Counted from the stretch's first letter, positions 1,379-62,263 are shown. The stretch: DNA of 64,000 nt from Isurus oxyrinchus (GCA_026770705.1 JANJGN010000034.1:3162001-3226000); one strand, 5' to 3'. The notes: generated from the sequence alone by a model not told the origin. Program-made: numbers and translations.

Positions 1379-1405
1379 CTATCTTTGTGTCCTGTAGCAT
1401 TTTTT
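1379..1405 (-). CDS. Micro-exon A8, 27 nt, (E)KMLQDTKI
   Basis: tttgtttgtcactacag|AAAAAATGCTACAGGACACAAAGATAG|gtatga. Confidence 0.75.
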   Translation of the reverse strand, partial: KKCYRTQR

Positions 1406-2036
1406 CTGTAGTGACAAACAAAGTTGAATTAAAGAGCAACAAAAATACGGGTTGTAAAATACAACAATTCTACGTTTTAGATTTGCACATGAAACGAAAT
1501 CGCAGTTCAGCCCACTTGCCTGATTAAAATCTGATCCTAAAAAGGCGGAAGAAAATTTCACAGACAGCGCGTTTTTAGACATCAAGGACGAGAAACGTTG
1601 GTGTGGAAGTGGATTATAAATCAGAATACATTTCTTTTCCGGCTTGTGAAAGTGCCCCCAGAAACATGAAGTTGGTGAGATGGTAGAGGTGAAAAGCCAT
1701 TTACTGCACCGAAGAATGATTTTCTTCCCAGCACGCCAATTCTTTCCTCTGAAATATTGAGCCAGTCAATCTCCACCGATCCTTCCCTATAACACCAATC
1801 TCTCAGTTGTTACAGCGCGCTCTGCATGGGAATGTTCTTCCTCACATTCCCTACAGCTATTCTCATTAACTTGATATCTCTGCCACCCTTGTACTGATCA
1901 GATAATACAAGCGGTTTTTCTTTGTCCAATTTATCCAAAGGCGCCATAATATTTTACACTTCTATCACGTGTCTTCTTAATCTCCTTTGCTGCAAGGCGA
2001 AGCACCCCAGCGTTTCCAGCACTTGCATTTAGCTAA

Positions 2037-2106
2037 CCCCACACACACCAACCCCCCCACCCCCACCAACACACCCCCACCCCACCCCCCCCCCCCCCCC
2101 CCACCT
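2037..2106. repeat. C-rich/poly-C tract (G-rich on the minus strand; shorter in copy B ~36622-36660)
   Basis: Direct reading; explains the poly-Pro and poly-Gly ORFs. Confidence 0.85.
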
Positions 2107-2199
2107 TCCTGGAGCCAGCGTGGTATATCCCTGCTGCAAACTTTAAAGGACGCACATCCTTCCGAAAATGTGGTGACGGGAATTGAACTCAAGGCCCCA

Positions 2200-2470
2200 G
2201 TAGGAGATTTACTAAAGCTTCAAGAAATTTCAGCAGCAATTCCAAACTACTTTTACCCAATGCCTTTATTTACGAAGCAAGGTATTCCATATGCATTGCT
2301 TATCACACTCTCAGAATGCCCGGCCACCTTCTAAGATCGATGCACATGCGCCCCACTACCCTCTGTTCTCGTGCACACTTTAGAATTCTGCTATTCAGAT
2401 TGCATTGCCCCTACGCACATTTTCTGATAGAATCAGACACCTAACACTCCTCTACAATAAACAGCATACA
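2200..2470 (-). mobile_element. Highly decayed CR1-type RT fragment (copy B ~36760-37030)
   Basis: Remnant ...CCCACTACCCTCTGTTCTCGTGCACACTTTAGAATT...ACCTAACACTCCTCTACAATAAACAGCAT resembles antisense CR1 ORF2; boundaries approximate. Confidence 0.4.
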
Positions 2471-3129
2471 TCGCTTAAGCCTATCAAATCATTTAATTGT
2501 TCAAACACAGACAATATGTATGGAAAATGAGTGGACCAATATAAGGATCAAACATATAACGTCGACGCGAATGATTGCAACCTGTGAAGATTTCTCTTTT
2601 TAACTTAGAAAATGTTGATAATGTGTATATCTTTAACAGGAGTATGTGAGTGCAATGCATTAAACATTTTATTAGATATCAAAAAGGCATTCGAAGGATA
2701 TAGATTTATAAACTATTGTTGGCGATTCGAAACGAGTAAAGACGTTTGCAGTTCGTGCACAGCTTAAGCAAAAGCACACATCTCTTTGACTGAATGGTCT
2801 GTTCTTGTAACTTCAATCCTACAAAAGTCTGCAAAGAAAATATGCATCGAGCCTGATCTCACCAATTATCCACCGAGCTGGTTGCAATAAATACGACCCA
2901 ATTAATCACAATGAATAACTTCCCTCGCTTATTTAGATGACGCTGCTTTTTCAATGGGAATCAGGAAGCAGTCGGGAAGTTATTCAGACCAACAGGGCCA
3001 TTACATCGACGGCCTCCAAAACCCCATTATTTGTACATGATGCGGTTTTAACTCCATTATTCCAAATCACCAGTCGGTTCCCCTTGCTAGTTGTTGGAAT
3101 TCGTCTCACATACACGATGTATTAACATA

Positions 3130-3515
3130 GGTGGAGGCGTAGTGTTTTGATCATTGGACCGGTAATGCGGAGATCCAGGGTAATCCTCTGGGTACCCAGG
3201 TCCGAATTCCACCGTGACGGATTGTGCAGTTTGAAAACAGCATGAATCAATTTTTCAGGTCTACCACTGACGGTTAAAACCATCTTCGGTTGTCGGAAAG
3301 GAAGAAGCTCGTTGGTTTACTAATAACTTTTAGGGAAGTGCACCTGTGATTCTTACCTGGTACAGTTGCACACTGGAGTCCAGACCTACAGGAATGTGGT
3401 TCACTGCTAAACGTCCTCTGGAATGACCTATCAGGCCAATTTGTTCAAGGGAAATTAGAGATGGGCAATACATGCTGGCCGAGCCAGCGCATCGCACATC
3501 CCTTAAACGAATAAC
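3130..3515 (+). mobile_element. tRNA-derived SINE (copy B ~37680-38070; related copies ~25355-26150 and ~31965-32295)
   Basis: A/B-box-like head (GGCGTAGTG...GGTCCGAATTCC) and 3' tail TTCAAGGGAAATTAGAGATGGGCAATACATGCTGGCC...CACATCCC; similar tails at ~26085-26150 and ~32235-32290. Confidence 0.7.
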
Positions 3516-4033
3516 AATTGAACATAAAACGGTTTGGTCATACTCATCATCTTTCGCATTAAACATACTCTATATACTTTGCCAATGCACTATGTTGGTG
3601 CCTATTTTATGTGTATGACACCTCATTACGGAGCAGCCCAGTACAAATACATATTCTCCATGTCGCACCTTTAAAAAGCATTTCATAAAATTGGAACATC
3701 CAACAGGTGAACACAGGACTGGATTTTCTCAAGAAATCATATGCAGCATTTGAAACATTTCCTCTGAATTATAACCTAATTGGCTGCCAACTGTACTTTT
3801 CTCTAAGCTCCAATATCGAGCTGGATGGAGGATCGGCTTCGCACTCATCTTGGGCTTTGCAAATGTTTACGCGCTGCCAGGAGATGGAGACGAGTGGAAA
3901 GGCGCCTCATCAGCCAAAGGGGATACTTTTCAACGGTTTAAACACATTCTCGGCCGCCGTAGGATTTTGAAGATGCAGTGATAATCGAGTTCGTTTTGTA
4001 GAGTAGAAGGGTCATGCAGACTGGTAATATTCC

Positions 4034-4206
4034 GCTGAATTTAATCGGCCCGTAGCTGCTGATGCGGCGCCGTCTATTGCAGCGAGCCATCCGGAAGTCC
4101 ATTGACCTCGGTAGATTTCACATTCACTGGAAATCAATGGAGTTTAAAATGGTTCATCACATTTTACGGCCCAGTCCCAAACGCGGCTGGGCCGTAAAAT
4201 TCCATC
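4034..4206. mobile_element. Palindromic MITE-like element (copy B ~38581-38753)
   Basis: Imperfect terminal inverted repeats GCTGAATTTAATCGGCCC / GGGCCGTAAAATTCCATC; internal TCCATTGA...TCAATGGA; perfect 14-bp hairpin at 4161-4200. Confidence 0.6.
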
Positions 4207-4409
4207 TATTTGTTCTATTTGTCTCTCCACAGTTGCTGCTAGGCCCGCTGAGTTTATGCAGTATTTTCTCCTTTTAGGATCGGAATTGCATCGTCTGCAG
4301 TGTTTCTCTATTATGCACTTCATACAGTTTTGTGCTCTAAACGGATTCATTATTCTCCCCTTCACCGCTCACTCCGCCCCTCCCCCCCCCCCCCCCCCCC
4401 ACCATTCTG

Positions 4410-6530
4410 CAGACATAAAGGAAAGGCATGTAATAACATGGATTTGGGATTACCATCTAACTATATTGACGTTTTGGAGAACTACCTATTTGCAGGGCGC
4501 TGGAGCTCATTGAAGGGCATGAACGCTTTCTGATCACTGTTTGGTTGTAACTAAAACCAGAATCAAGCTGAAGAGGCTGAAGAAATAATCAAAGATATTG
4601 AAGAGATTTGATATCCGCCAACCCATTGACACCTTAGAGGATTTTCAAATAACCCTTGGGAACATAATTGGTGTTCTGGCTGACTGAGTGCCCGGAAGAG
4701 TAGATTGTTGGGAGGAAGTAAATCTTCAATGGCAGTAGCAGGGAACAGGCATTCTGACAGTAAGTTATTTTTTAGTATTCGCAGATAAGTGACTGAACAT
4801 GGGATATTTTCACATAAGCCAAAGTATTTCATTGGATAAGACAGAAAAATGAAACATGATGACTGCCTTCCATCAGGCCTATGGGAATTAAGATAGTTAG
4901 ACGAAAAGGAGTTCCCAACAAGGCAACGGATAATGGATGAAAACGCCAAGACACAAGAAAGCAGAGTACAACTCGGCCAAAATCACAAGATATCACTATT
5001 TCAAATCGGAAAGAATATTCTCCACGTTATGAAAGTAATGGTCGGACCAGTTATTGGGATGGATTGTACGCTGATCTCAAAAGGTGTAGGTGTTATCGTG
5101 GTGGGCAGAAAACCTCAGGAAAACCTGTAATAGACTTAGTCCATCGATTCCAGACCACGTCAATCAGCCACCAATTAAGCTTCCAGTAAGTGTAGAGAGG
5201 TTAAGTTGAAATCAGGTAGTTAAAGTAATTGCTTTACACAAGAAATAAGGGGATACCGATATAATTAATTTCGCTGCAGAAATGCTGAAGTCAGCAGGAA
5301 ATCAAGTGTCCTGCGGCTAATGAAAATTAGTAATCAAGTCGGGGAGACTTCAGTTGTTCCCCAAGACTGAAAATGATCCCCTCACTAAACGTGACACTTG
5401 AAGTGAGTTCTTTCCACTAAATTGCAGGCAAAGTCCATTGCTACATGACCTTTTACCATTTATCTGGACAGTGGGTAGAGATCATGGAGAAGGCCCGTTA
5501 GGTTTTGGAACGAAATAACATTTCACTTTGCAAAAGCCGCATCATTAAGAAATGCCAAGTGCATCTCGTCACCTTTGCAATCACCCTTCTTGAGTTCAGC
5601 AAGATGTATGATAGGCTTTATCGGTCCACACTCCAGAAAAAGAAAAAAAATATATTTAACTGGCATCACGCAGCAATGTTCAAAGTTATTGTAATGTTCT
5701 ATCAGAGTTCCAGAACCTGCGTTAGCACAGAGGGTGGTTACAATGATTGGTTCCATTTGCGGCCTTGTGAGGCAAGTGTACATCGTTTCTATCTTTGTTT
5801 TCTGCTGTTGCCATTGACTCGTAAGTAAGGAAGTCAACCATGGATACTATTGCAGTGAAATGGATTAATTATCGTCAGCTTGAAGCGTTGCCTTTTGTTT
5901 ATGACACAATTGCTCTGTCGGACAGCATAACAGGGCTGCAACACCTCATTGTACTTCTGTACAATCAGCCTGAGAAAGGGAGACTCACCATGAACGCCAA
6001 TAAGGCAAAAAAGAAAAAATGATAAAAATGACAGGAAGCCAGCAAAACCGATCAGCTATTTGTGCCAATCAAAAGAAGGATGACTTCGTAGTTCAAGTAG
6101 AGGAGTTCACATATCCACGCATTTCTATGACTACCATAGAGAAAGATATGAATTCGAGAATGGATAAAACATCATATGGTTTTAAACACCTGACAAATAC
6201 TTGGAAAAGCAAAACTTTTTCCATGTGAACGAAGCACAGACTTTAGACTGCAAACTATCCAGTAGTCTTGTGAAACTTGGAACCGGAAAACCTGCGAAGA
6301 AAGGAATCAGGTGACTTTGACAACATATGCCTTCAAAGGATTCTAGCCATAGACCTGTGTTACAGCTAGCCCAGCACTCAAGTAAGGGAATACTCAAAAG
6401 AGCCTCCAGTTTCAGCAGTCATGCAGAAATGAGGGATCCACTGGCTTTCTCGCATCACTGGATTTCCATCATGGCAGCCTGCCCATCAGACCCTCCAGCA
6501 GGCAGCTAAAAAAATATATATGTAAGTAAA
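4410..6530 (+). mobile_element. Decayed RTE-clade LINE (copy B ~38940-41100)
   Basis: RT remnants CVSTEGGYNDWF, PFVYDTIALSDSITGLQHLI..MNANKAK (degenerate YADD region) and VEEFTY..IEKDMNSRMDKTSYGFKHLTNTWKSK, typical of RTE-clade RT; 5' boundary uncertain. Confidence 0.75.
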
Positions 6531-6559
6531 GGCTGACTCAAGGTCAGCTAATGCAAAAC

Positions 6560-9500
6560 TGTCATCTCGTGAACAGATACTGGAGCGAGGCAAAAACATT
6601 GGCTTTGCACAAGGAAGAGTGCAATGGGCAGGTAGTGATGGGACAACAAAAGCTACAATTTAGTAGGAAGGGGCAGATTGTCCAAACTTAGTGCACGTGT
6701 AGAAAATCAAACATATTGCAATAATTACAACAAATACAGAATTTTAGGCTGTGCACCTGACGAGGTGCAGCAATCATTACAAAAGAGATGAATTGACAGC
6801 ACAATTGAAATTAACATCTACGATTTGGTCGGCATTAATTAACGTTGTTTCAAAGTGTCCAATGTTGTGATCTAAACATTCAAGGATGTTTTACATTTCC
6901 GAAGGACTGAAAGTAGGAAAACGTGACGGAGCACCTCTTTTAATTAAGAATTACATTGATGCAGTAGTGAGAGGTGAACATTGTTCAGCAGATCAAGATG
7001 TAGAATAATTTTGGGTATAAGTAAAAAATAGTAAAATAAGAGTTATCTTACGGAAATAATTCACAAGGACACAGTCAGCAGCTACACTGTAACATTGGCT
7101 ATGAGGGATATAAATATCTTGAGTTGCAAGAAAATTATTGTAATAATCACGCAGAATTATTTATTACCTCCCTTTAGTTGGGATGAATCAGATTTGCAAA
7201 TTTTGGCCAGATAAACAGTTCATAAGAGCATTGAAGCAATTTCTTAGAACTATGCTTTCAAGTGCCACGCAGGGCGAAAGCTACTTAAAACTGGCCCGTG
7301 TGCAATTAGACATGACTAATTAATGACTTCATAGTAATAGAGCCTGTATGCAAAATTACTCATAACAGAATCTGAATGTGAGAAGTATGGGTCAAAGACA
7401 AGTGTCTCAAACTGAAATAAACGTAATTAAAAGGACATGAAGAGTTGAAAAATGCAAAATATGTTTGAAAGTTGGACATTTAAAGACACAGTGTGATGGA
7501 CATTTGAGGAGATATTTCGTAACCTTGTATTTTATAATATTTTATACTGACAAATAAAGACTCTATGAGAAGTATGCACCATCCGAGGCTGGAAACATAT
7601 GCCATCAGTTACTATAGGAAACAACTTGAAAACTAATTTGAAATAAGGAAACTATTACATAAAGTGTGCCTCAGTCCCTTAGCAATTGACACTGGAAAAC
7701 CAATAATGGAAGAAAATGAGACGTTGAAAGCGTGAATACTTATTTACAGCCTGACTTCAGTGAGGAAGTGTAACAATCTTAAACTGAGGTTATCCCGGGA
7801 CAAGCCTCATCCCATAGTGGATCCCAGCTTGCTAGGGCCTAATGATTATTTCTTTTTTTAGCTATGTGGCGAGTAGCTAATGAACATTGTCACATGATTC
7901 AGCTGATATACTTTTAACAAAAGAATGAAACATTTATTTAACAAGAAAGGATGAACAATATTACAATGCTCCTTCATCATCAAATATACCTCTACAGATA
8001 TATACAGATTTTCAAGGAACACACACGTTACAAAAAGTATATTACACTACAACATTCACACTAGTACACAGTCTATTTACACCTATTATGACGGGTGACC
8101 AGGCACATCACTTTCCGAGGGCAAGTGATGGATGACATCTCAACTAATTGCTGTGCTTCTCTCCGGAACTCCAGCTAAACGATTTTCATATCATGAGCCA
8201 ACTTGTCTCACTGCACTACGTCTTTCACAGGAGGCTATCCAACCTCCACTCTCCAAGCCATTACCTTAAAATATTCACCCAAACAGGCATTTTCTTTCAG
8301 ACGCCTCCCACAATGGTTCAACTCCAGGGTTTTGAACTCTCTTTCCAATGCTCCTTTTCCTTCGGTCACCACAGGTATGTTTATCTGTCTTCTACGCAGT
8401 CTCTCTTGCTAAATCATTCAGTAACTGTACCAAAGCTTCGCATGCCCAAAGCAAGAGTTACAGACCTTCACTTCTCTCCTTGAACCTTCTTGCTCCTTGC
8501 AAGCTGTTCTCGGTTTAAATCTGCTTTCTGCAGTTCTTGTCTCTTTAAGTTTGAATTTTGAAGCCTTTCTCTCTGCTCCTCACTATTGACTTCACTAAGA
8601 AGACCTCTTCTAGGTTCTTGAACTTCCTTTGACTAAATGGTCTTCTTAAACCTTCCTCTTTTTCTATCTTAAGCCATTGGCCTTGGAACCTTGTGGTCCT
8701 TTTGGGAAATGTGCAGTTCCCTCTCCCATTGACGAGTATCTCTTGGGTTTTGGCTTCAAACCTCGCTGCACTCCAGCAGCTTCCTACCATAGTGCTTTTT
8801 TTGTAGCTTCTCAGTTTGTGTCTGTGGAAGGGATATACGTCAGTGGTTCCCTATTGCTCGACAAGAGTCCAATTCTTCTACGCTTGTTGGTTTACTTTAG
8901 GTTAAGTTGGAAAGCTCTCATGAAACATGCAAGCACATGTATAAAGTGAAACTAAAATCCGTGACACACGGATACAGCAATACAAATCAAACTTAAACTT
9001 TAAAGCTAAAACTCATTCCTAACACTGACAAATACCAATATAATGCACTTAAACTGTCTCGATTTCCGAGCAGAATGACATCCCAGATATTTAAAGCTCT
9101 AGATTTAAAACTGAGTGAAAAGCTTAAAACAATTGCAACTGCCACGGAAACAGCTGGAGAAATTATTACAACTAAATGTGTACAACCATCTGGACTCGCT
9201 GGCCAGCGTTCTAGGGCCCTAAAGAAATATTAGCTACCAAGATAGCAAATGCATTTGTTGTAATCTCCCTCAAATCTCCAGATTGAGGAAAATTCCTAGA
9301 GATTTAAAAATCACAAACGTTGCATTAATATTCAAGAAATGTGAATGACAGAAGTAAGGAACGTATACGGTTGATGTTCCTTTAATTATCACACGGCAAT
9401 TGATGGAATTAAATTTTAGCAAAGTCATAGCAGGGCATTTGGAAAATTGTAAGACAGTTCAACAGAGGCAACCGGCATTTGTGAAAGGGAAATCGTCATT

Positions 9501-10565
9501 CAAAATGTTCTTAGAGATCTTCGAGGAAGCAATATAAAAGGTAGTTTAAGTAGTTCTTGCAGATGTGATGGACTTGCATATCCAAAAGAATTTCCGTAAG
9601 GTGCCACATCAACGGTCGTGCACAAAATAAGAACTCATGCTGTAGGGGTAACATATTAGCAATGTTATTTGCTTTGTTAGCTAAATGGCAGCAGCGAGTC
9701 TGGATCAATTCTACTTTTTTGATTTGGCAGTGTCTAAACAGTGGAGTGACAGAGGGAACATGTGAATCTGTTCTATTTGCCAGGAAGAGCATAAAATAAT
9801 ATGTTGTTTTTATTACAAAGAGACGCAATAAAAACCTGAGAGCCAAAGGGATCTGGGGGTCATGGAGCATGAGTATAAAAATGGTATGTACGTGCAGCAA
9901 GTGATTACAGAGAGGAAATTGAACGTTGGTGTTTATTTAATGGTGAACCGTGTCTGAAAGTAGAGAATTGTCACTGCAAATGTACAAGGTACAAATGAGA
10001 GAGCAATTGGGGCACTGTGCACATCTTTGGTCTGCTTATCTAAGAAATGATACAATTCCATGAGAAGCATCTCAGAGAAACTTTAATTAGATAATACCTG
10101 GAAACATGGGTTTACCTTATGCATAAAGGTTCAGCAGGTTCAGCCCGTACTCAGTGCAGGGAGGTGATATTTTGAACTGCATAAAATCCTGAGGGAACGT
10201 GACAGATTGTATGCCGAGAGGTTGCTCCCTTTCTCTGGGTGTGGAACTAGCGTCACCGTTCCAAAAATAGGGCTTTTCCCATTTAAAATTAAAATGGGGA
10301 TTTTTATTTTTCTGTCTTAGAGGGTCGTTAGACTGTGGAATATTCTTCCCCAGGAAACAATGGATACTGAATCATGAGATACGTTCAAAGATGAGCTTTG
10401 ATTTCTTTTTTTAAAAAAAAAAAACAAAGGAATCATGGATTTCAGTCGCAGGTCGTAAATAAATAAATGAAGCCTCAATCCCAACGCTCTGGATCTAATC
10501 ACATGTTGAGGCAAGCTTGCGGCCCGAATGGCCTACCCCTCTTCCTAGATCTTTTGTCAGTGTAT
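6560..10565 (+). mobile_element. Old CR1 LINE ORF2 plus 3' tail, interrupted by a solo LTR (copy B ~41130-45125)
   Basis: Endonuclease start remnants (GATGAATTGACAGCACAATTGAAATT..ATTCAAGGAT); RT remnants (GGGAAATCGTCA.., AAGGTGCCACATC); CR1 tail GGCCCGAATGGCCTAC..CTTCCTA. Confidence 0.8.
7769..9072. mobile_element. Solo LTR of ~1.3 kb (copy B 42359-43658)
   Basis: TG...CA termini (TGTAACA...GAGCA; copy B TGTTATG...GAACA); imperfect GAAG/GAAT flanks; CR1 sequence resumes across it (CTTCAGTGAGGAAG|GAATGACATCCCAG). Confidence 0.7.
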
Positions 10566-10629
10566 TTATTGTTTCCTGATGCGCCACTTCGTGCAGAGTC
10601 TACCAAGTTCAACTAATTCCCATAGTAGC

Positions 10630-10860
10630 CAACTGTGGCACATTGGTTGGCTGTTGCCTCTAAGTCAAACGATGCTCATTTTGAAATATTTTTCCAGAGA
10701 CTTGAGTACATATTGGACCCTGATGTGCTTACTGTAGTTTCGATAGAATTCAATTTTGTGCAGTGCCTCATCGAATAGCCCCATCTTTCGATTATAGTTA
10801 ATGATGTGATCACATGGGACCGATGTCATTTAAAGGGCCCAGATTATTTCAGTTGCCTCC
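10630..10860 (+). mobile_element. Decayed tRNA-SINE, possibly DeuSINE/SacSINE-like (copy B ~45190-45420)
   Basis: GTGGCACATTGGTTGGCTGTTGCCTCTAAGTCA...TCCAGAGACTTGAGTACA head; family assignment from memory only. Confidence 0.5.
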
Positions 10861-11155
10861 TGCATAATATTATTTCTTGTTAAAACAGTGATCTCCAGCA
10901 TATGGAATTCCTGGAGCCTGCCTTTGTATATCAGTAATCAAATTCAGTAGTAGATGTTTACTTATCAACTGGTCCTGACGTTTTACGGAGCACCAACTGG
11001 TGGTTCCAGGCACCACACTTTGGATTTTTACATACTTGGACATACTGACCATGTGCAAAGTGTAGTGGAGCAGATATGCTATTAATGTCAAAGTCTAAGC
11101 TATTTAGACCCATCAAATGTGTTAATAAGCTGCCAAATATGCCTTTCTAATTTAC

Positions 11156-11191
11156 CTGTGTCTGCAAGAGCCTGCTTCACCTTGGCCAGCT
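11156..11191 (-). CDS. Micro-exon A7, 36 nt, (E)LAKVKQALADT
   Basis: tttttctttctttcgctcag|AGCTGGCCAAGGTGAAGCAGGCTCTTGCAGACACAG|gtaaat. Confidence 0.85.
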
Positions 11192-12840: not shown

Positions 12841-12844
12841 CCTA

Positions 12845-20000: not shown

Positions 20001-20091
20001 TGTTAGGATTATTTGAGGTGGCAACTAGTAGGTTAGACAAAGGAAAGCCAATGGCTGTTATCTGCTTGGACTTCCAGAAGGCCTTTGACAG

Positions 20092-51203: not shown

Positions 51204-54200
51204 GACGGCGTGGATGCGAAGTGACTGAAGCATTCTGGGAGAAGTCATCACAGCCACTGTGACTCAGGAGGGAATCAAGGAGGACCCACTGTCAAAGAAA
51301 GGAATAGCCCTAAACATTACATTGTTGTAGTGTTTCCATCCTCTCTCCTCTTCAAACCTAAAATAAGTGGAGAGAAAGTAAGGGTCAATGCCTTTAGGAG
51401 TACACCAGACCTGCGAGGGAGACTCTTCTGAAAGTGCATTTTAAAGAAAAAGCAGCTCGTTGCTGTGTACATCCTGCGGGCAGACTCGGAGGGAGGAACA
51501 CTGGAGCAGTTAGTATATATTTAGCTTACCTCGGGGATTCGTAGCCTTGTCTCCAGGGAGCAGACTTGCTGGGAGGAGCACCGGAGCGGTGAATATATAT
51601 TTAGCTTACCTCGGGATTTGAAGGCCTTGCCTCCAGGGAGCGAACTCAGAGGGAGGAGCACTGGAGCGGTGAGTACAAATCTATCTTACCTCAGATATGC
51701 GTGGCCTTGTCTCTAGAGAGCAAACTCAGATGGAGGAGCGGTGACCTTGCCGCACAGAGTTACTGACGGCAAAATTGACAACGTGAGGTCACATGAAAGC
51801 TGTGACCTGATTGGGTGTAAGAAATTTGCACCAAATTTGAAAAAAAAACTACAAAGTTATTTAATAAATTAATTATCTAAATAGAGATGGCTGGGCAAGG
51901 GATGTGCTATAGCTGTATGATTTGGGAGGTGGCAGATCCCATTGCAAGCCACAGTGACCAGATCTGCAACAAGTGTTGGCTGCTGGAGAAACTCTGGCTC
52001 AGAATTGATGGGCTGGAGTCCGATATCCTGATTCTGCGACACACTGGGGAGGGGGAGAGGTACCTGGGTGCTTTGTATCAGGACAAGGTCACATCAAGTT
52101 TAATTAGTACCTCATGTCCGGTCAGTGGTCAGGGTCAGCAGGGTGTGAATGCATTGAGACAGGGAGTGGAATCCTGTGTTCAAAAACAAAGGCACCTCAG
52201 CTCTTTCCCTTGTCCAACAGCTATGAGGTACTTGCCCGCGGTGTGGATGAGGAAAAGGGCTGTATGGAGGATGAGCCATTTGACTACGGCACCATATCAC
52301 AGGAGGCCATTCAAGAGGGGGGACTAAAAAGACAAGTCGTAGACGTAGGGAATTCTATAATTAGGGGAATTGATAGCTTGCTTTTTAAGCAGGATCAAGA
52401 GTCCCGCTTTGTATGTTACCTGCCCAGTGCCAGGGTGAGGGCCATCTCTGGCCAACTTGAAAGGATATTGGAGAGGGAGGGGGAGCATCCAGTTTTTGTA
52501 TTCCACGTCGGGACAAGTAACACAGCTAACACTAGGAAAGAGGACCTGTTTGGGGATTATCAGGAACTAGGAACTAAATTAAATAAGAGAACCTCAAGCG
52601 TTATAATCGCCAGATTAGTACCCGAGCCACGTTGGCTCAGAGACACAAGAATAAGGGAAGTAAACACATGGATAAAGGAAAAAGGGTTTCCATTTCGAGG
52701 GGCTATGGCAACAGCTTTGGAAAAGGTGCAGTCTGTACCATTTGGACTTTCTGCAACTTAACTGATCTGGGTCAAAAGTTCTAGGCAAAGGGAAAATAGG
52801 AAAATTCCAAGAAGTATGACTAATGCGAAACAAAGCCGCAGGTTGGCGTGTGGGAGTTTGGGGTGGGTGGCGGGGGGGGGGGGGAAGTAGTGGGGGGGTG
52901 ATTGGATTCAACTTCATGGAAAAAAAATGAAAAAACTGAAAAGAAAGGAGAGCCCAGGAGAGGCTATTAAAGTCTCAAGAATACAAAACAGGACAGAGTG
53001 TTTGGAAAGGGCTAGGAATATAACTTCAAGCACATCAGATAAAGGGACAAAAGTGAGAAAGGGGACAGAAAATGCAAAACTGAAGGTGTTGTATCTGAAT
53101 GCGCGCATTACATGAAATAAGGTAAATGAGCTTGTGTCGCAGATTGAAATTGGTAGGTATGATGTGGTGGGCATCACAGAGACATGGCTGAAAGGTGATC
53201 CGGACTGGGAGACAAATATCCAAGGATATACATCTTACCAACAAGATATGCAGGTTGACAGAGGGGTGGGGTTCCTTTGTTAGTAAGAAATTAAATTAAA
53301 TCGATAGCAAGAAAAGAAGTAGGATCAGATGATGCAGAATCTGTGTGGGTAGAGATGAGGAATGGCAAAGTTAAAAAAAAAGGTAAAATAAAACATAATG
53401 GGAGTTATGTACAGCCTCTGAACAGTAGTCAGGATTTGGGGCACAAGATACACCAGGAGTTAGAAAAGGTGTTTAAGAAAGGCAAAGTTACAGTAATCAT
53501 GGGGGATTTTATTATGCAGTTAGACTGGGAAAATCAGGTTGGCAGTGGATCCCAAGAAAAGGAATTTGTGGAATTTCTACGAGATGGCTTTTCAGAGCAG
53601 CTTGTGGAAAAAGCTGGCATAAGATGTAAGGGTATTACAGTTGAATAAAAGCAACTACTTAGGCATGAGGAAGGAGCTGGCCAGAATTGACTGGGAGATG
53701 AGCCAAGCAGGAAAGACATGGGAACAGCAAAGGCAGGATTTCCTGGGAGTAATTTGGGAGACACAGCAAAAATTCATCCCGAGGAAGAAGAAGCATACTA
53801 AAGGGAGGAGGAGGCAACCATGGCTGACAAGGAATGTCAGGGAAATTTTTATAACTGAAGAGAAAGCATACAATGCGGTGAAGAGCAGTGGGAAACCAGG
53901 GGATTGGGAAGCCTACAAAGAACAGAGAACAACTAAAAAAATAAATAAGGAAGGAGAAATTTAAATATGAGGATAAACTAGCCAGTAATATAAAAGAAGA
54001 ATGCAAGAGTTTTTTTAGATACATAAAGAGTAAAAGAGAGGCAAAATTCGCCATTGGGCCGCTGGAAAATGATGCTGGAGAAGTAGCAATGGGGAATAAA
54101 GAAATGGCAGAGGAATTGAACAGTTACGTTGCATTAGCCTTCACAGTGGAAGACATGAGTGACATCCCCAAAGTTCAAGAGAGTCGGCAGGCAGAGGTGT

Positions 54201-55810
54201 TTATGTTGGCCATTATCAGGGCTAAGGTGCTAGGAAGTTGAACGATCTGAAGGTGGCTAAATCACTTGGACCAGATGGATTACACCCCAGAGTTCTGAAG
54301 GAGATAGCTGAGGAGATAGTGGAGGCGTTCGTGGCGATCTTTCAGGAATCACTGGAGTCATGGAGAGTCCCAGAGGACTGAAAACTCGCTAATGTAATAT
54401 CCCTGTTTAAGAAGGGAGTCAGGCAAAAGATGATTAGCCTGTCCTCGGTCGTTGGTAAGATTTTAGAGTCTATTATTAAGGATGAGGTTTCAGAATATTT
54501 GGAAGTGCATGGTAAAATCGGGTAAAGTTAGCATAGTTTGAATTAGGGGCTGTCATGCCTGACCAATCTGTTAGAATTCTTTGAGGAGCTAACCAGTAGG
54601 TTAGACAAAGGAGAGCCAATGGATGTAATCTACTTGGACTTCTAGAAGGCCTTTGACAAGGTGCCACACAGGACGTTGCTCAGTAACATAACAGCCCATG
54701 GTGTTAAAGGCAAGGTACGCACATGGATAGAAGATTGGCATTCTTGCAGGAGGCAGAGAGTGGGGATAAGGGGGTCCTTCTCAACATAGCGGACGACGTT
54801 GGGTGGAGTTCTGCAGGGGTTAGTGTTGGGACCACAACTTTTCACTTTATACATTAATCATCTAGATGAAGGAACTGAGCGCATTCTGGCTAAGTTTGCA
54901 GATGCTACAAAGATAGCTGGAGAGGTAGGTAGTATTGAGGACGCAGGAGGCTGCATAAGGATTTGGACAGGTTAGGAGAATGGGTAAAGAAGTGGCAGAT
55001 GGAAGACAATGTGGGGCAGTGTGAGGTCATGCACTTTGGTAGGAAGAATAGTGGCATAGACTATTTTCTAAATGGACAGAGAATTCAGAAGAGCATTAGG
55101 AGTCCAGGTCCAGGGTTTTCATAAGATTAACTTGCAGGTTGAGTCGCTAGTTAAGAAGGCAAATGCAATGTTGGCATTTATTTCGAGAGGACTCGAATAT
55201 AAAAGCAGGAATGTGCTGCTGAGGATTTATAAGGCTCTGGTCAGACCACATTTAGGATATTGTGAGCAATTTTTGGCTCTGTGTTTCAGGAAGGAAGTGC
55301 TGCCCCTGGAGTGGGTCCAGAGGAGGTTCACGAGAATGATCCCAGGAATGAAAGGCTGCACGTGTGAGGAAAGTTTGAGCTCTCTGGAAATGTACTTGAA
55401 GGAGTTTAGAATGATGAGGGGGGATCTGATTGAAACTTACAGAATATTGAAAGGCCTGGATGAAGTGGACTTGGGGAACATTTTCCATTAGTAGAAGAGA
55501 CCAGGACCCGAGGGCACAGCCTCAGAGTAAAGTGAAGACCTTTCGGAACAGAGATGAGGATAAACTTCTTTAGTCAGAGAGTGGTGAATCTATGGAATTC
55601 ATTGCCACAGAAGCCTGCGGAGGCCAGGTCCTTGAGTATATTTAATACCGAGATAGATAGCTTCTTGATTTGTAAGGGGATCAACCACTATGGGTGACGG
55701 CGGGAAAATGTGGTTGAGAAACTTATCAGCCATGATGAATGGCGTAGAAGACTCGACGGGCCGAATGGCCTAATTTCTGCTCCTATGTCTTATACTCTTA
55801 TGGCCTTATG
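51204..55810 (+). mobile_element. Near full-length inactive CR1 LINE, copy B (same insertion duplicated with the block)
   Basis: Same flanks as copy A; ORF1 MAGQGMCYSCMIWEV..QICNKCWLLEKL; ORF2 remnants; ~135-bp deletion relative to A near 53608. Confidence 0.95.
51476..51745 (+). repeat. ~80-bp tandem repeat in the CR1 5'UTR (3 full units plus a partial)
   Basis: Units start at ~51476, 51556, 51636 and 51716. Confidence 0.85.
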
Positions 55811-56703
55811 TAAAAATTCAGCATTAAGAAGGTCCACTAATCTAATCCTAGGAATCATAACATTATATTTAACTAGAAAGAAAAATATGCCGTTGTGGAC
55901 AATCAGTGTGTGGTTCGTTACCTCTCAAGTTTTGCATTGTTAAGCTGAAGCTTGCCATCCCCCAAAGCTTTAACCTGTGTCCGAGTGTTACATCCGAGTT
56001 CTAAAATGGTTACGCAATCCGCCGTTTTCCTCATGATGAGTGTGGAAAACCAGCCATTGCTCCAATTGTAAAGGTGTCAAGTTCATACAGGATTATGTCG
56101 CTATTTCCTTTGCCTTCGAGAAACGCACAATTAAGATGAGGAACTGCCTCTCCCTCAGTACATTTCCAGATGCGGACCATTGAACCTCTATGGCTACGGT
56201 CAGGTCCAATTTCATAAAGCAAAAAGAAATGATTCACTTTTTAATAAGGAGGCATTCGTTCCATAAGGTGTGCCTCACTCTTAAGCTGATCTTGGACATT
56301 CAAAAATGCAACTTCACTAGCTTGAATAAGTTATTTCTACATTTCTAAATTATCTCCATCTAAAAAAACTGCTTATTCTGTTCACATGATTTGGTGATAT
56401 CTGCATCAGTGTTGGATACAGCATTGAGCCACTTAACAGGAAGAAATGCACGATTTCAAGAGGAAGACACACCAGCTCTTTGAGAGGTCGCAGGTTTGCT
56501 TAATAAGCGTCAACCATGCTAGAGATAATGTGGATCAATATTTCACATAAACTAGCAGTAAGCAAAACTCTGTCTCAGGGATCCTCTATATCCTAAACGT
56601 GGAAAAAAGTTACGATTTCCCTTTTACACATTTACAGTAATAATAATGGAAATGAATGGAACCACTTCTACACCTGCAAATATAATGACTGCTCGATATT
56701 TAC

Positions 56704-56730
56704 CTTTTTCCCTGTTACTCAGTCTTTGTT
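56704..56730 (-). CDS. Micro-exon B4, 27 nt, (E)QRLSNREK
   Basis: atcatcacag|AACAAAGACTGAGTAACAGGGAAAAAG|gtaaaa; identical to A4. Confidence 0.85.
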
Positions 56731-57422
56731 CTGTGATGATAAAGCCAGATAAAATGAGAAATATTGGAGGGCAAATCCGTTTTTGAGAAAGTTGAAACGT
56801 GTAATGTACAAATGTTAATAATGTAGAAATAGATCATCCCTGGGAGACCAGAATGTGCACTTTCTGCAGTCTGATATAATCCAACTTTGGTTTTCTCTCC
56901 CACTGAACTCTACAGGGCTGAATGTAAATGGCACCGTAGAGCAGTCACCATTGCCGATCTTTAGGCATCAGGTTAATTAGTTCTGCCCTTAACCATGTCT
57001 GGTATCAATATGAACCTTATCTATCGCCAACATGTTTGCCTATTAACTGCGCTTTGTAATTGCTTTTCCAAATGTTTGCTGCAACGCAAACCATTCAACA
57101 GTGTGCAAGGAATCGGAAACGTGCCACAGACGCAACGGCAGCTGGAATGTGCTTGGAATTCTGCAATTGCCAGTTGTGCTCACATCAAGGGAAGGAACAG
57201 CGTGCTCCATTATCTTCTCTAAGGGAAATTTGAGCAATCAACTAAAGGTTTTGGCTGTATTGCAGTATCGCCAGGAAACGTTCCCATGTGTACAATTGAC
57301 TTGCCTTAGTTTATTCATTGGTAATGAGTAACCCGCATCATAAACAGGCGGAGGTAAGGCAGATGTAACCAAATAGTAGACGTCAATTGGAATCGCATAA
57401 CAAACTTTTTCTTCCCTCATAC

Positions 57423-57458
57423 CTGAACGTTCCAGAGCACCCTTTACATTTTCCAGTT
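57423..57458 (-). CDS. Micro-exon B3, 36 nt, (E)LENVKGALERS
   Basis: tgctttcag|AACTGGAAAATGTAAAGGGTGCTCTGGAACGTTCAG|gtatga; 2 synonymous changes vs A3. Confidence 0.85.
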
Positions 57459-60400
57459 CTGAAAGCAGGCACAAAACCAAATACTTTATTCCAGGAACAT
57501 AATAACATCAGGTGCAATTATCTAAAACAAAGGATGCATTTGAAAAATATTTATTCAAGAATGTAATGAATACAAATGCGCGATATAGCCGATTGAATGT
57601 GCTTTAAGTTCAGTCACTTGTAATTATGAAACACAGTATCCAATTTAACACAGATAGTTCATCCCAGGTCATTAAAAAAAAACAGCTGTTTTTTTCCCCC
57701 TCATGTTGCAGTCCCTTCTTTTGTCAATATCCGTAAATCTGTTTCAGCTGGTTCCTGACTCTACCGACAATAGTAGCAACCTTTCATAATTACTCTTTCT
57801 AACAACTTTCCAGCTTTGCGCAGCTGTATCAAGTCTCCACTTAATAATCTCTTGTCCAATGGGAACAGCAGCAGATTCATTAGTCGACTCAGGTAAATTA
57901 AGTTCATCATCCCTGATCATTAGGTATGGACCTTTGTTGCACATTACCTAATGCCTCCTCATCCTTCCTATGGTGAAGGCTTCCCATGACTGAGCACAAT
58001 ATTGTCTTTGAGCCGAAAAAGTGTCTTATAGATGCTTTCACTTAATTTGTGCTCCTTGCCCATCTTTATAAACTCCGTAATCACAGATGCTTTATTCATG
58101 TATTTACCCCACACCCTCCACCCCCATGCATAACTTCAGCCATTTGTGCAGATAACTATGTCCCTCTGTTCCTGTGCCACCCTTCGAATTGTACCCGTTA
58201 TTATACATAGTTTCCCTCTTTATTCTGAACAATTGAATCACTTCAGGTTTCCTTGCATTAAATGTAATCGTCCACTATTCCACAAATTCCACCAGCCTAT
58301 CTATACCCCTTTGAAGTTCTCGTTATCGCCATCACCCTTTACTATATTTAGCAGTACCCTGCATACCCAAAAACTGTTAATTAATGTAAAGATGTCAGAG
58401 AAAATATTGTCGCTGACTAAGACGCCTGTTGAACTCCAGTATATTCCTTATCTACTTAGCTAAAAACTATCCTTCACCACTGCTCTCTTCTTTTTGCTAC
58501 TCAGTAAGATTTACATCTGCGCTGCTACTGCCCCTTTATTCATTGCAATATAATTTGCTTAATAAGCCTATTTTTGGCACTTTGTTAAATACTTTTTTCA
58601 AGTCCATGATCACTACTGCAACCATGTTAGAATCATTGACGTTCTTTTGTCTCATCAAAATACTCAAACAATTTATTTGAACATGATTTAGTTAAACAAC
58701 AAAATAGGTGCTGTCCTTTCTGAAAATTTTCCAGTGATCATTAATTTCTTTCGCAATTATCATTCCTGAAAACGTTCCCTTCACTGTGGTTGAAAAAGCT
58801 GGCTTGCACGTAGTGATACAATCCTTACAGCATTCCAACAAGTGCTTAAAATATGCAGTTTCCCAATTATCTGCACTGCCTTTGTAGCTAATCAGGTTTG
58901 ACAGTTGGTGGCTGGCACCTCTACACTTGCCCATCTTGCGTCCCTCGCCATCAGTGGATGCATAAGCTGTCCCTAAGACTCAGCAACTTTAAATATAGTC
59001 TAACTCTCAACTACCTTCTGTTTGTCATTTTTTTTTTGCATCTAGTATCTCAATAACCCCAAACTCCACTCTGCATCACATAAGGTCTCATGGAACCTGT
59101 TGCAACTGCACATAATTTGGGACTTGGAATGATCTTCTACTATCATTTAGGAATAAACAAGCAGTTCCTGTTATAGAACTACCATGCATAATCACAATTT
59201 TGCATTGCCATGTTTTGGCTTTTAACAGGGAACATTGCTATAATGTTTGTCGTTAATGTTGTTAAATACCATGAATAGAGCAAACAGAAAATACTTTTGC
59301 GAATAAACAGCTTAAGTGAAAGTGGAATATAACAAACAAGCTACTACTTGTGTACACAATTCATTTCTTTAACTATCACTGTGTTAAACTCTTATATTTC
59401 CTTGAAGGTAGAAGAATAAGCGGGCACATTTGGCCAAAGTTTTCATGATGAGGTAGGTAAGGAAAACGTTTTCCTGCAGTTGCGATTACAAGTTTCCAAC
59501 AGCTGAAAATAATTATATGAAATTCGGCTGTAAGTCATTCATGATGGGAGGTGGTGATGTAGTATTAATGTCCTTCCAGTATTCCATGGATTCAGGCTAA
59601 GGCTTTGGGGGGCATATGTTCAAATCCCACCATGATTGCTAGTGGAATGTGCATTCAATTAATTAACTCGAAGCACGAGTAGGCCATTCAGCCCGGGGAG
59701 CCTGTTCCCTCATTCAAAAATTTCATGGCTCATCATACACTTCTATATATTTTTCTCACACTACCCCGAGATACCTTTATGACATTTGTATTTAGGAACC
59801 TCTGAATCTCTACTAAAAACAAGCATACTCGATGATGTTGATTGTACGGTCTGCTGGGGTGCAAGACTGCAAAAACCTACATCACTCTCAGTGAGAAAAA
59901 CAATCTGATCTAGGTCCAAATGCGGTGAACATTCGTTGCACTCCCTATTTGGCAGTGCTATAATTCCGGAGTATAAGGGGAACACACCTACTCACAATAG
60001 TCCAGCTGTGGCCTAATGTTCTGGAATCTTTAATTGAAAGCTAGTATCAATAATGGTGACCACGATGCTGTCATCGATTTTTGTAAAATACCATCCTGTT
60101 CACGAATGTGATGTAGGGAAGGAAAATCTTCCGCCCTCACATGGTCTGGCCTAAGTGTTATTCCAAACTCACAGCAAATGGTAGTTGGTTATCATTGATA
60201 TTTGTTTACAAAGTAAGACCACAACAATATGGTTAACTCCTCACTGTCCTCTGAAATTGCCGAGAAATCTACTCAGTTCAATTGCAATTAGGGTAGTGCG
60301 ACCAATGTTAGCCCTGCCAGTGATGCCCACAATACATCAAAGAATGATGACGGTTATGATGGTGATGGTGATGATGATGATAATTACGATGGTGGCGATA

Positions 60401-61547
60401 ATAATACTAATAATAGTATTATTCTTATTAATAATAATAATAACAATATATCTCCTTGAATGGCTGAACATTCTTGAGGAGTAAAATGACTGTCCATTGT
60501 TCCTATGTGCCAATGTTTCTATGAGCTCAGTGCAGTAACATCGGAATCGCCATAACTATCAAGCTTACATTCGAGGGGAAAGAAAAAGTGCAGAGCTCAA
60601 TGTTTGTGTGGATGGTTATTTGTCAACTGGCAACGTGCGAAAATGAGCATCATCCAAAATCATTAATTGATGTATTTTAAAATTGTTCTGGAATCTATCC
60701 GCTTCCCAAAAACGAGAGTTTATAGTGCCTGCACTCGACACCACCCCAAAAAATGTACTGGCATTGTGGATTGGAATAAATTAATCAAGTTCACGTCTTA
60801 GTTTTTTCTTTCCATATGCCCAATGACGAAACCACCGGTAGAATTAAGTACTGTCTCTCCTTCAGGACATTCCCTGGTGCGGTCCATTCGTAGGCATCCT
60901 GTTTCTTTCAAGTGTCAATTCATAAAGCAGGATATAACTCTCAAATGAGAGGGTATCATTGGACGCTCCGTCAGACTATCAGAATGTTGAGTTGGTTTTA
61001 AAAGTCCCGAAATTTTCTTTACCACTGGTGGCAAAGCCCCTGCCTCCTGCTCCACTTTTCATTATTCCACCTGTATGATTTGCTACATCTGCATTGATGC
61101 ACATTGGTGCCAGGTTCCCATTAATTCACACATCCTTGTAAATACATCATATACACTTCATCTGATCTGCATAAATACACATAGGAACCCTATTCTAATA
61201 TCACTTTGGGAGCCTAGTAGTCACAAAGAATACAGGAGGACAACAAGAATGCATTTAATCATCTGAAAGGAAAATAAGGATGTGTTATAAACGCCGAGCT
61301 TGTGAGCAATGTCAATGACGTTATTTCTTAGACTGTGGCATGTGGAGTTAGCAGTGCCGTATGCAAAGTCAATTAGAAGTATTTCCGTAAAATGAGTGAG
61401 ATACATAAATTTACCTCTCTACCCATTAAACTGGAAGATGGAATGTGAAAGTTAAGATTTTTTTATTAACTTGTACAAACTTAACAATTGAGAATAATTG
61501 AAACCAACTGTACAATGACAAAAATAATATTGGTTTGATGTCCATAC

Positions 61548-61574
61548 CTTTTTCCTTGCTAGCCAGTTTTTTTT
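61548..61574 (-). CDS. Micro-exon B2, 27 nt, (E)KKLASKEK
   Basis: taatcacag|AAAAAAAACTGGCTAGCAAGGAAAAAG|gtatgg; identical to A2. Confidence 0.85.
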
Positions 61575-62227
61575 CTGTGATTATAAGTCCAGAGATAAAA
61601 TGTGGTGAAGTGTTGTAGGATACTTCATATATGTTAGGCTATGCAGTTATAGTTAGAAAGAATGAATAGGATGTAAATGAGTCCTGTTAGAGTGTTTCTT
61701 TAGGAAATTAATATCAACCATGATGTAACCTATAGGTCGATAAAATCCAGAGTTCAAAAGGAGCATGGTTGCTCTCATTGGGTACGGTCTAGTACAACAA
61801 GATCCTGGTGCACTCTTATTTATGCATCGATCCATCGAGATGTGTCAAAGCAGTTGTCAGTGGTTTAGAAAGCTATACTGTTGCAAGCACAAAAACTGTT
61901 TGGCATAAATGCCGGTACTGACAGTTCCACAAAAGAATGAAGGCTGTGTGTCACACAATTCTTAAACGAACAGGCACCAGGCGGGTTAAAATTGAACATG
62001 CTACAATTACTCATATTGGAGAGAGACAAGATCATATGTTCAATGATATATCAGTATATTCCTGGCTTTTCGTTGTTTGCAGCAAATGTGATATGCAATC
62101 AATTGAGACATCAGTAGCATTGCCTATATTTCAGAATATTTGGAAAACAAGCATTTGACGCAGAACAGATAGACATTAGCCAAAAAAAGCACTAAAGTAC
62201 AATGAAAGACAGGCCTGTTCCACTCAC

Positions 62228-62263
62228 CGGCAATCTCCAAAGCAGCTTTTAGCTCATCTAAAC
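62228..62263 (-). CDS. Micro-exon B1, 36 nt, (G)LDELKAALEIA
   Basis: ttctcttag|GTTTAGATGAGCTAAAAGCTGCTTTGGAGATTGCCG|gtgagt; differs from A1 by 2 synonymous changes. Confidence 0.85.

Follow-up and report, generated by a model that had tools for sequence, protein, structure and literature searches.

Known coiled-coil and B30.2 proteins

In the cited parts of the literature, butyrophilins are described as carrying heptad repeats followed by a B30.2 domain (PMC4046983, PMC8813856, PMC12841164), and the coiled-coil tail of chicken BG as encoded by 13–36 exons of 21 or 24 nt, with a length that varies by exon number (PMC4046983); the relation of BG tails to orphan B30.2 domains is presented as an open question (PMC8813856). 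A coiled coil followed by B30.2 is also found in the TRIM/RBCC-B30.2 E3 ligases. The enterophilins of guinea pig combine an extended leucine zipper with B30.2 in the absence of RING or Ig and are much shorter than the predicted product of the gene analysed here. Enterophilin-1 binds SNX1 and alters the surface level of EGFR, according to the cited part of PMC13749957.

The gene analysed here, termed gene B, encloses the entire window (1..64000, minus strand), i.e., the whole 64,000-nt stretch of Isurus oxyrinchus DNA under study. It shares with butyrophilins the small phase-1 heptad exons and the C-terminal B30.2 domain, but butyrophilins have Ig exons and few heptads, whereas in gene B no Ig exon was found and about 167 exons are organized in 27/36-nt units. 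Like chicken BG and the BG-derived zipper protein, gene B is predicted to build a long coiled-coil tail from tiny exons. By contrast, chicken BG has an IgV and no B30.2 domain, whereas gene B ends in B30.2 with no Ig found, has about five times as many exons and a unit of 12+9 instead of 7 residues, and includes hinge exons. Compared to TRIM/RBCC proteins, its coiled coil is more than ten times longer and encoded by micro-exons; RING/B-box queries had no matches in the 1.5 Mb around gene B, whereas the same queries yielded 13 matches (best 2e-107) in a 70-kb control region on C21. An analogy with the stalk of CD23, drawn in the first-pass annotation, had to be abandoned, because CD23-type lectins have a C-terminal C-type lectin domain, whereas the array of gene B terminates with a B30.2 exon that contains the stop.

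Micro-exons of the window

The window contains 19 AG..GT exons of 27 or 36 nt on the minus strand, all phase 1-1 and separated by introns of 616–9,750 nt. They are listed here together with one decayed copy and are named in the text by their higher coordinate.

62228..62263, minus: 36-nt exon of type A, encoding 12 aa with core positions 2, 5 and 9; upstream duplicate
61548..61574, minus: 27-nt exon of type B, with Leu at position 4; A and B together make 21 aa, or 3 heptads
57423..57458, minus: 36-nt exon, type A
56704..56730, minus: 27-nt exon, type B
49785..49811, minus: 27-nt exon, type C (in register, Cys-terminated)
48596..48622, minus: 27-nt Gly/Pro linker exon, register reset
46471..46497, minus: 27-nt exon, type B, weak acceptor; the 11920 copy lacks AG
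45708..45743, minus: 36-nt exon, type A
35963..35989, minus: 27-nt exon, type B, final exon of the upstream duplicate
34957..34983, minus: 27-nt exon, type C (Cys-terminated), opens the downstream duplicate
34314..34340, minus: 27-nt Ser/Gly linker exon, acceptor strong, donor weak; the copy past the window (+68,481) lacks AG
28084..28119, minus: 36-nt exon, type A, duplicate of 62263
27376..27402, minus: 27-nt exon, type B, duplicate of 61574
23063..23098, minus: 36-nt exon, type A, duplicate of 57458
22338..22364, minus: 27-nt exon, type B, duplicate of 56730
15178..15204, minus: 27-nt exon, type C, duplicate of 49811
14006..14032, minus: 27-nt Gly/Pro linker exon, duplicate of 48622
11894..11920, minus: decayed duplicate of 46497 (acceptor AA, Leu to Pro), likely skipped
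11156..11191, minus: 36-nt exon, type A, duplicate of 45743
1379..1405, minus: 27-nt exon, type B, duplicate of 35989

The first-pass annotation had listed 18 tiny exons with polypyrimidine-AG acceptors and GT donors. Phase, strand and the two lengths were correct, but the count was one short, and acceptors or donors are weak at 46497, 34340 and 34983. The missing exon is probably 46497, because the earlier numbering fits only if it is omitted. The chain of 189 codons is free of stops, and both Leu/Cys registers quoted earlier are reproduced by the computed translation: joining 62263, 61574, 57458, 56730 and 49811 places Leu at 1, 8, 15, 22, 29, 36 and 43 and Cys at 50, and joining 45743, 35989 and 34983 places Leu at 1, 8, 15 and 22 and Cys at 29. 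As a control for chance, at a generic splice score of at least 5, the window holds ten 27-nt and six 36-nt candidates on the minus strand versus none of either on the plus strand; the other 44 lengths amount to 33 versus 35.

The register survives the A-B-A junctions, as had been claimed, but is reset at 48622, 34340 and 14032. The position of the resets at Gly/Pro/Ser linker exons indicates a segmented rod and not a single zipper, so the original description of a leucine zipper spread over 60 kb overstated its continuity; it also understated its size about twelvefold.

A tandem duplication within the gene

The window represents two copies of a 34.5-kb head-to-tail intragenic duplication, which are 87% identical overall and 95% identical in their exons.

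1084..35669, no strand: downstream copy of the 34.5-kb duplication
35667..64000, no strand: upstream copy, extending beyond the window end to +69,916

Because the exons are copies of the duplicated block, the 18 exons listed originally are not independent observations. Between the duplicates, 257 of 270 exon nucleotides are identical, compared to 29,014 of 33,376 elsewhere (p = 5e-6), and five duplicated exons show no amino-acid change. The residue-altering differences (6 of 13 changed codons) cluster in B exons and linker exons, and one acceptor has been lost reciprocally from either copy, which suggests that parts of the rod are relaxed. The duplication with its reciprocal acceptor losses illustrates how such a rod grows.

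Extent of gene B

Beyond the window, gene B and its upstream boundary were located on contig C34.

2,712,861–3,430,467, minus: micro-exon array, about 167 exons
2,708,632–2,709,152: terminal B30.2/SPRY exon (L078)
3,438,617–3,438,692: candidate 76-nt hydrophobic exon, uncertain (L034:2617-2692)
near 3,474,116–3,474,636: B30.2 exon of the upstream paralogue A (L037), which bounds the 5' end of gene B

The array comprises about 167 exons and 1,700 codons over about 720 kb, with a median intron of 3.4 kb. A scan of 664 kb gave 44 hits of 27 nt and 35 of 36 nt on the minus strand versus 3 and 0 on the plus strand, with 0–10 at other lengths; 21-nt exons were not enriched (3 versus 3). Models trained solely on paralogue A accepted 131 of 5,475 candidates on the minus strand versus 1 of 5,383 on the plus strand, and 165 of 5,522 versus 1 of 5,440. 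In the list of 167 exons, which includes some false calls (one creates a stop) and omits some exons (e.g., a 36-nt exon at +221,361), 110 of 166 junctions are in register, compared to a mean of 57 and a maximum of 78 in 10,000 shuffles. Hydrophobic pairs across junctions are enriched at spacings of 7 (z 6.3) and 14 (z 8.4), and the A-B alternation is ordered along the entire array. The architecture of gene B, a micro-exon array ending in B30.2, is highly probable, and the array and the B30.2 exon are likely one gene of about 730,000 bases. No further B30.2 exon is present between that of paralogue A and that of gene B.

The terminal B30.2 domain

An inspection of the flanks of the window for exons of additional domains had been proposed, and a B30.2 exon is present there; an Ig exon was not found, and a hydrophobic exon is a weak candidate. 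The terminal B30.2/SPRY exon, about 450 kb downstream of the window, is an intact open frame ending in a stop. It matches the Pfam model of SPRY (E 6e-15) but not that of PRY. The best sequence match in the PDB is the B30.2 domain of BTN3A1 (2e-26), and the fold matches are the B30.2 domains of TRIM11, BTN and TRIM7. The His-Tyr of the phosphoantigen site of BTN3A1 aligns with Thr-Trp in gene B. The AlphaFold model (mean pLDDT 64, residues 1–42 unresolved) is too poor for judging a ligand pocket.

The genome of I. oxyrinchus encodes seven B30.2 exons of this kind, which group with proteins of chimaera, sharks and rays, apart from TRIM and butyrophilin domains. In the underlying tree, which is midpoint-rooted without an outgroup, includes 'sub' rows picked by the same profile, and excludes the multi-B30.2 proteins topping the searches for relatives (in one search, most carry RING/B-box), a 100/99 branch separates 18 rows from the shark BTN/TRIM domains. 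The domain of gene B lies outside the BTN/TRIM side, on a long branch of its own, and no match is a clear orthologue. A single-sequence search for longer B30.2 relatives returned four generic TRIM-type matches among 294 candidates.

Relatives in cartilaginous fishes

The relatives are chondrichthyan models that combine a coiled coil with a B30.2 domain of the same group: XP_042192744.1 (P0075; Callorhinchus, 1,697 aa, 'nuclear-pore anchor-like'), XP_038668997.1 and XP_038672308.1 (Scyliorhinus, 'TRIM39-like'), XP_069775385.1 (Narcine, 'zinc-binding protein A33-like'), XP_055510696.1 (Leucoraja, 'TRIM69-like'), and P0189 (Scyliorhinus, 945 aa). Like gene B, they possess SPRY only, without RING, B-box or Ig, whereas their names imply domains that are not present. 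Most models, with 101–945 aa, fall far short of the genomic array and lack a hydrophobic stretch at their start. The two chimaera models P0075 and P0276 are set apart by 16 blocks, five of 9 aa and five of 12 aa, and isoforms of Narcine, Scyliorhinus and Callorhinchus vary by 9-aa blocks. When the relatives served as short-word tblastn queries on 1.5 Mb, matches at best covered single exons (best E 0.001).

Gene B likely belongs to an old family of cartilaginous fishes, of which databases hold only short or misnamed models. The initial suspicion of a mis-annotated, repeat-expanding coiled-coil gene with micro-exons resembling those of butyrophilins and BG is supported. Among the open-access titles and abstract beginnings listed for TRIM, BTN, BG and enterophilin, none mentions a chondrichthyan long-coiled-coil B30.2 family; supplements or gene tables of genome papers could list the loci.

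The 5' end

The 76-nt hydrophobic exon, chosen among eight hydrophobic candidates in a 44-kb gap, is a weak candidate for the N-terminus. Compared to run X5 of a related organism, it shows 3 differences in 76 positions versus 39 in 308 in the flank (Fisher p 0.017), and the splice dinucleotides are retained; all three differences fall within two codons and change both residues, and the donor is weak (score 1.0). Five of eight possible RNA runs were aligned: X11 and X13 had no reads on this exon, and X9, X10 and X12 provided mainly repeat-derived cover on window positions 44,000–63,000, with no exon joints among those listed, which speaks neither for nor against splicing. No RNA run was listed as containing the terminal B30.2 exon.

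The N-terminal parts of six fish BTNs had no tblastn matches in the 49-kb 5' gap or in 1.5 Mb. No Ig family was recognized in 27 minus-strand frames of at least 85 aa in the 5' gap, which were picked by eye with one tile-edge frame excluded; the control of the Ig search was a protein (P0232) and not a genomic Ig exon. An in-frame ATG further upstream (+276,767) was rejected as the start of a first exon, since it is altered in X1 and X5. Where A and C adjoin (C34 3,994,007–3,995,751), an inverted repeat was rejected as a source of shared first exons, because it derives from a decayed LINE-like element that matches at least 40 places in the genome. The N-terminal region of the chimaera protein was unmatched in the genome of I. 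oxyrinchus and in the ESM Atlas, and a protein search recovered only itself and its older model.

Proposed product and alternatives

We assign a probability of roughly 0.5 to the reading that gene B is one gene encoding a hinged coiled-coil rod of about 1,900 residues, a tail like that of butyrophilins and BG, in which a long distance would separate B30.2 from the likely membrane anchor at the N-terminus. The array would be spliced into one mRNA and encode parallel oligomeric coiled-coil segments, in which 36+27 nt make three heptads; the segments would end in Cys and be linked by Gly/Pro/Ser hinge exons. Fully extended, the rod may reach about 250 nm (1,700 x 0.1485 nm). Tandem duplication of exon blocks presumably accounts for its growth, and exon skipping, which symmetric exons permit without a frameshift, may tune its length. 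The least certain steps are that the rod faces the cytosol on a short hydrophobic anchor, i.e., as a butyrophilin/BG-type tail minus the Ig ectodomain, and that it would act as a long tether or spacer. Given the architecture, the odds of an anchored cytosolic topology are about even.

It is rather unlikely that the same gene encodes a soluble cytosolic rod that lacks an anchor, as in the BG-derived zipper protein or the enterophilins of guinea pig, and acts on cytoskeleton or trafficking. Such a protein would agree with the models of most relatives (P0157, P0161, P0189, P0163), which start directly in the coiled coil, with the lack of a common hydrophobic 5' exon in paralogues A and C, where no exon matches the candidate, and with the number of N-glycosylation sequons in the array (5 versus 6.5 expected). 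However, these models are probably 5'-truncated, as judged from their length relative to the genomic arrays, the candidate hydrophobic exon is conserved, and the first residues of P0075 form a hydrophobic stretch, behind which basic residues follow.

The same basic residues bear on an extracellular rod and B30.2 domain, in effect a stalked recognition domain, for which the hydrophobic exon would encode either a type II anchor or a signal peptide that is cleaved off, and core Cys would form inter-chain disulfides. According to the positive-inside rule, basic residues beside a membrane segment favour the cytosolic side, so those of P0075 favour a cytosolic tail. Although a phase-1 hydrophobic exon that leads straight into the rod is reminiscent of a signal exon, the hydrophobic core is short, and Cys occurs at segment ends and core positions (position 9 of six 27-nt exons; positions 9 and 12 of four and five 36-nt exons), Cys makes up just 1.4% of array residues, sequons are not enriched, and the nearest B30.2 domains are intracellular, which renders this arrangement quite unlikely.

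Short models with several alternative starts (P0155–P0158), the loss of two acceptors within the duplication of the window, and the scarcity of exon calls from +185 to +144 kb would fit a locus that is not one transcript but yields short 3' transcripts from internal promoters or A+B read-through with alternative B30.2 ends, with many middle exons as decaying passengers of duplication. This is improbable in view of the constraint on window exons after about 13% intron divergence, the ordered A-B alternation, the 1,697-aa chimaera model, and the stop followed by AATAAA in the B30.2 exon of paralogue A. It is highly improbable that the exons are splice-like sites that arose by chance, an artefact of the assembly, or parts of a dead gene: although the splice joints are predicted from genomic sequence, the strand bias is 165 versus 1, the B30.2 frame is open, the duplicates are, with only 87% identity, too divergent for a haplotype duplication, and reads of a related organism (DNA run X1) fall in all 30 bins of window positions 44,000–63,000.

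Evolution and significance

With about 167 exons of 27–36 nt amid introns with a median of 3.4 kb, gene B offers a strong test of how micro-exons are recognized in splicing and would rank among the most exon-rich vertebrate genes, with titin and nebulin as comparison. Genes of this kind escape ORF scans, and annotations mostly truncate or misname them, so that catalogues of shark immune genes may count them as TRIMs or butyrophilins. Gene B takes the heptad-exon design of BG and butyrophilins to an extreme, with a 12+9-residue unit, a retained B30.2 and no Ig found, and bears on the relation between BG tails and orphan B30.2 domains.

It is possible, if doubtful, that cartilaginous fishes have maintained, ever since chimaeras and sharks diverged, a family of giant genes (0.7 to >1 Mb, well over 100 symmetric micro-exons each) for length-tunable hinged rulers of hundreds of nm, with a B30.2 sensor at the tip and without Ig or RING. 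Exon skipping and duplication of blocks would determine their reach, and they would represent a third deployment of B30.2 beside TRIMs and butyrophilins, possibly extracellular.

A hint of a further gene downstream was not upheld, as no array is present in C34 2.56–2.70 Mb. Six tiles upstream of two members on C21 contain 0–2 plus-strand micro-exon calls each. Paralogues C and D also include heptad exons of 21 nt.

A probable hinged coiled-coil gene ending in a B30.2 exon

The first-pass annotation described a minus-strand gene of 27- and 36-nt micro-exons encoding a leucine zipper. This feature is real and represents a variant of the known tail design of butyrophilins (BTN) and chicken BG proteins. 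Both leucine registers quoted were exact when the joined exon sequences were re-checked, but the stated extent was too small, because the array continues far past the window. The 27- and 36-nt exons emerged on the minus strand from scans for AG..GT-bounded segments with an open phase-1 frame, and the final set in the window comprises 19 exons (62263 to 1405, each named by its 5' position), which are separated by introns of 616–9,750 nt and provide 189 codons without a stop. With a generic splice score, the two lengths together yielded 16 segments in the window on the minus strand vs. none on the plus strand; the other 44 lengths yielded 33 vs. 35.

Among the tiles examined (2.56–4.16 Mb of contig JANJGN010000034.1, here C34, in a genome of 4.98 Gb), the array extends from +268,467 to -449,139 (signed positions lie outside the window and are contig positions minus 3,162,000). 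Over 664 kb, a clear excess is present at two lengths only, 27 nt (44 minus, 3 plus) and 36 nt (35 minus, 0 plus). Exon models trained on a neighboring paralogue and applied to the candidates of this gene accepted 131 of 5,475 minus-strand vs. 1 of 5,383 plus-strand candidates in a first scan and 165 of 5,522 vs. 1 of 5,440 in a second. The merged list, which includes two window exons added by hand and lacks some true exons, contains 167 exons (66 of 36 nt and 101 of 27 nt) with 1,701 codons and a median intron of 3.4 kb; the single stop in the chain is the product of one false exon call.

The terminal exon, located 3.7 kb past the last micro-exon, begins in phase 1 and comprises 173 codons ending in a stop. 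It matches the Pfam family SPRY (6e-15), its best sequence match in the PDB is the B30.2 domain of BTN3A1, and the best matches of its predicted structure are B30.2 folds. No continuation of the array past this exon was found in the downstream tiles. Further downstream, open frames of 145–314 aa occur on both strands at C34 2,643,400–2,644,200 (tile L168), and the plus strand at 2.05–2.51 Mb (L177, L179, L180, and L181) carries repeated single-exon frames of seven-transmembrane receptors, which we take to be GPR139-like.

The 36-nt exons (type A) encode hydrophobic residues at positions 2, 5, and 9 in 92, 82, and 92% of cases, and the 27-nt exons at position 4 in 68%. One type A exon and one 27-nt exon of type B together encode 21 residues, equivalent to three heptads. 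In-register junctions (A–B, B–A, and B–C) account for 110 of 166 (shuffled mean 57, maximum 78), and pairs of hydrophobic residues that span a junction are most frequent at separations of 7 and 14. The type C exons, also 27 nt long, maintain the register and often have Cys as their last residue; the exons that come next in the window are Gly/Pro/Ser linkers, which shift the register at 48622, 34340, and 14032. The predicted rod is 45% charged (K 17.3, E 16.1, D 7.3, and R 4.0%) and contains 15.8% L. Judging from sequence, the product may consist of coiled-coil segments chained through hinges.

Internal duplications

Self-comparison revealed a head-to-tail repeat of 34.5 kb (1,084–35,669 and 35,667–69,916), whose copies are 87.0% identical over aligned positions. 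The nine exons paired between the copies are identical at 257 of 270 nt (binomial p 5e-6); their changed codons are silent in 7 cases and non-silent in 6, with exclusively silent changes in the five exons 62263 to 49811. Because, in addition, X1, a DNA sequencing run from a related organism, covers 30 of 30 bins between 44,000 and 63,000, the duplication is old and real, and constitutes an internal test of exon constraint. The unit comprises 11 exons with 108 codons, of which each copy retains 99, as each has lost a different 27-nt exon (11920 and +68,481) by a change of the acceptor AG to AA; both of these exon copies are predicted to be skipped. The loss is reciprocal between the copies:

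Window 11,894–11,920, minus strand: acceptor-dead exon copy adjoining a hinge
+68,455 to +68,481, minus strand: acceptor-dead exon copy adjoining a hinge

Just beyond the unit, older copies of the exon pair 57458/56730 at +71,365 and +70,557 represent a smaller, earlier duplication. A second intragenic tandem duplication of ~71 kb (-189,193 to -333,944; C34 2.83–2.97 Mb), with copies that are 85–89% identical, is similar in age to that in the window; its fuller copy contains 20 exons (210 codons, 30 heptads), and the other copy yielded 18 exon calls.

A high-copy repeat with very high read depth and RT-like pieces, probably a LINE remnant, lies at about 51,000–56,000 and 16,800–21,000, associated with an 80-bp tandem repeat (51,480–51,739 and 16,852–17,038); because it is found in both copies, it predates the 34.5-kb duplication. 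The introns also harbor a degenerate tetranucleotide satellite of 5.7 kb (-27,975 to -22,198) and remnants of retroelements that retain long open frames; these lie on the plus strand from -46,616 to about -41,000 and on the minus strand at, e.g., -70,462 and -316,914, the latter being presumably Penelope-like.

The 5' end

The upstream side is bounded by the B30.2 exon of the neighboring paralogue A near +312,600, and a gap of 44 kb therefore remains 5' of the array. The N-terminal parts of ten shark TRIM and six BTN proteins had no matches in this gap or in the whole 1.5 Mb; the same TRIM queries yielded 13 matches on contig C21, which served as positive control. Likewise, none of 27 long gap frames searched against Pfam matched an Ig, RING, or lectin family. 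The best candidate for a 5' exon is:

+276,692, minus strand: 76 nt, phase 0-1, encoding a Cys-flanked hydrophobic stretch

The candidate differs from X5, a sequencing run from a related organism, at 3 of 76 positions vs. 39 of 308 in the adjacent sequence (p 0.017), with the splice dinucleotides kept; none of the three differences is silent. No counterpart was found in paralogues A and C. Upstream of the candidate, a possible exon carrying the ATG has a strong phase-0 donor at C34 3,440,839.

Proposed function and comparison with known systems

By their membership criteria, the gene belongs to none of the butyrophilins, chicken BG proteins, or TRIM proteins. Known here from genomic sequence, it can be likened to an enlarged BTN/BG tail, and we take the enterophilins to be its analogue.

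A single mRNA would join the micro-exon array to the B30.2 exon; the rival possibility is that the array is transcribed in fragments. If the full chain is translated, its coiled-coil segments would be oligomeric and hinged, with a length of about 250 nm when extended. Our guess is that the product is an anchored, Ig-less cytoplasmic tail of the butyrophilin/BG type, fixed at its N-terminus, which would present the B30.2 domains and keep them at a distance; alternatively, the rod might be soluble or secreted. The anchored tail would have a predicted role as a tether or sensor. Such a rod would grow through block duplication, and exon skipping might tune its length because any subset of phase 1-1 exons keeps the frame. 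For enterophilins, a link to SNX1 is reported (PMC13749957).

Chondrichthyan relatives and paralogues

A profile built on the seven close B30.2 exons of this genome ranked proteins of chimaeras, sharks, and rays first among single-domain matches. These top-ranked relatives possess SPRY but lack RING, B-box, and Ig domains, and carry database names such as TRIM39-like, A33-like, butyrophilin-like, and nuclear-pore-anchor-like. In a midpoint-rooted B30.2 tree of 43 rows, picked via the profile with exclusion of multi-B30.2 matches, a 100/99 branch separates the 18 family rows from 15 TRIM and 9 BTN rows; the closest named proteins to the B30.2 paralogues of this genome are from Cetorhinus and Carcharodon. 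Two versions of a ~1,700-aa chimaera model differ in 16 blocks, and ten of these blocks measure exactly 9 or 12 residues; blocks of 9 residues also distinguish isoforms in three species. Assuming that the database models rest on RNA, these differences indicate indirectly that relatives may splice exons of the same sizes and that the design may be older than the chimaera–shark split. Titles and abstract starts in the open-access literature yielded no description of this family.

Five close B30.2 exons are located on C34 (2.71-, 3.47-, 4.82+, 6.40+, and 7.50+ Mb, with strand). Paralogues A (minus) and C (plus) start head-to-head near 3.98–4.01 Mb (region 3,974,000–4,010,300; L133, L152–L155); between them lies an inverted duplicate of a 430-bp LINE-like fragment (88% identity). 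In paralogues C and D, the 27/36-nt exons are interspersed with runs of Cys-containing exons that encode one heptad each and are 21 nt long, which is the exon size of BG and butyrophilin (C34 4.07–4.15 Mb; L185). Two further close B30.2 exons lie at 89.72 and 91.35 Mb on C21, within a large B30.2 cluster that is a possible place of origin of the gene family. This cluster (82.9–118.2 Mb) comprises at least well over 100 B30.2 exons and also contains TRIM genes.
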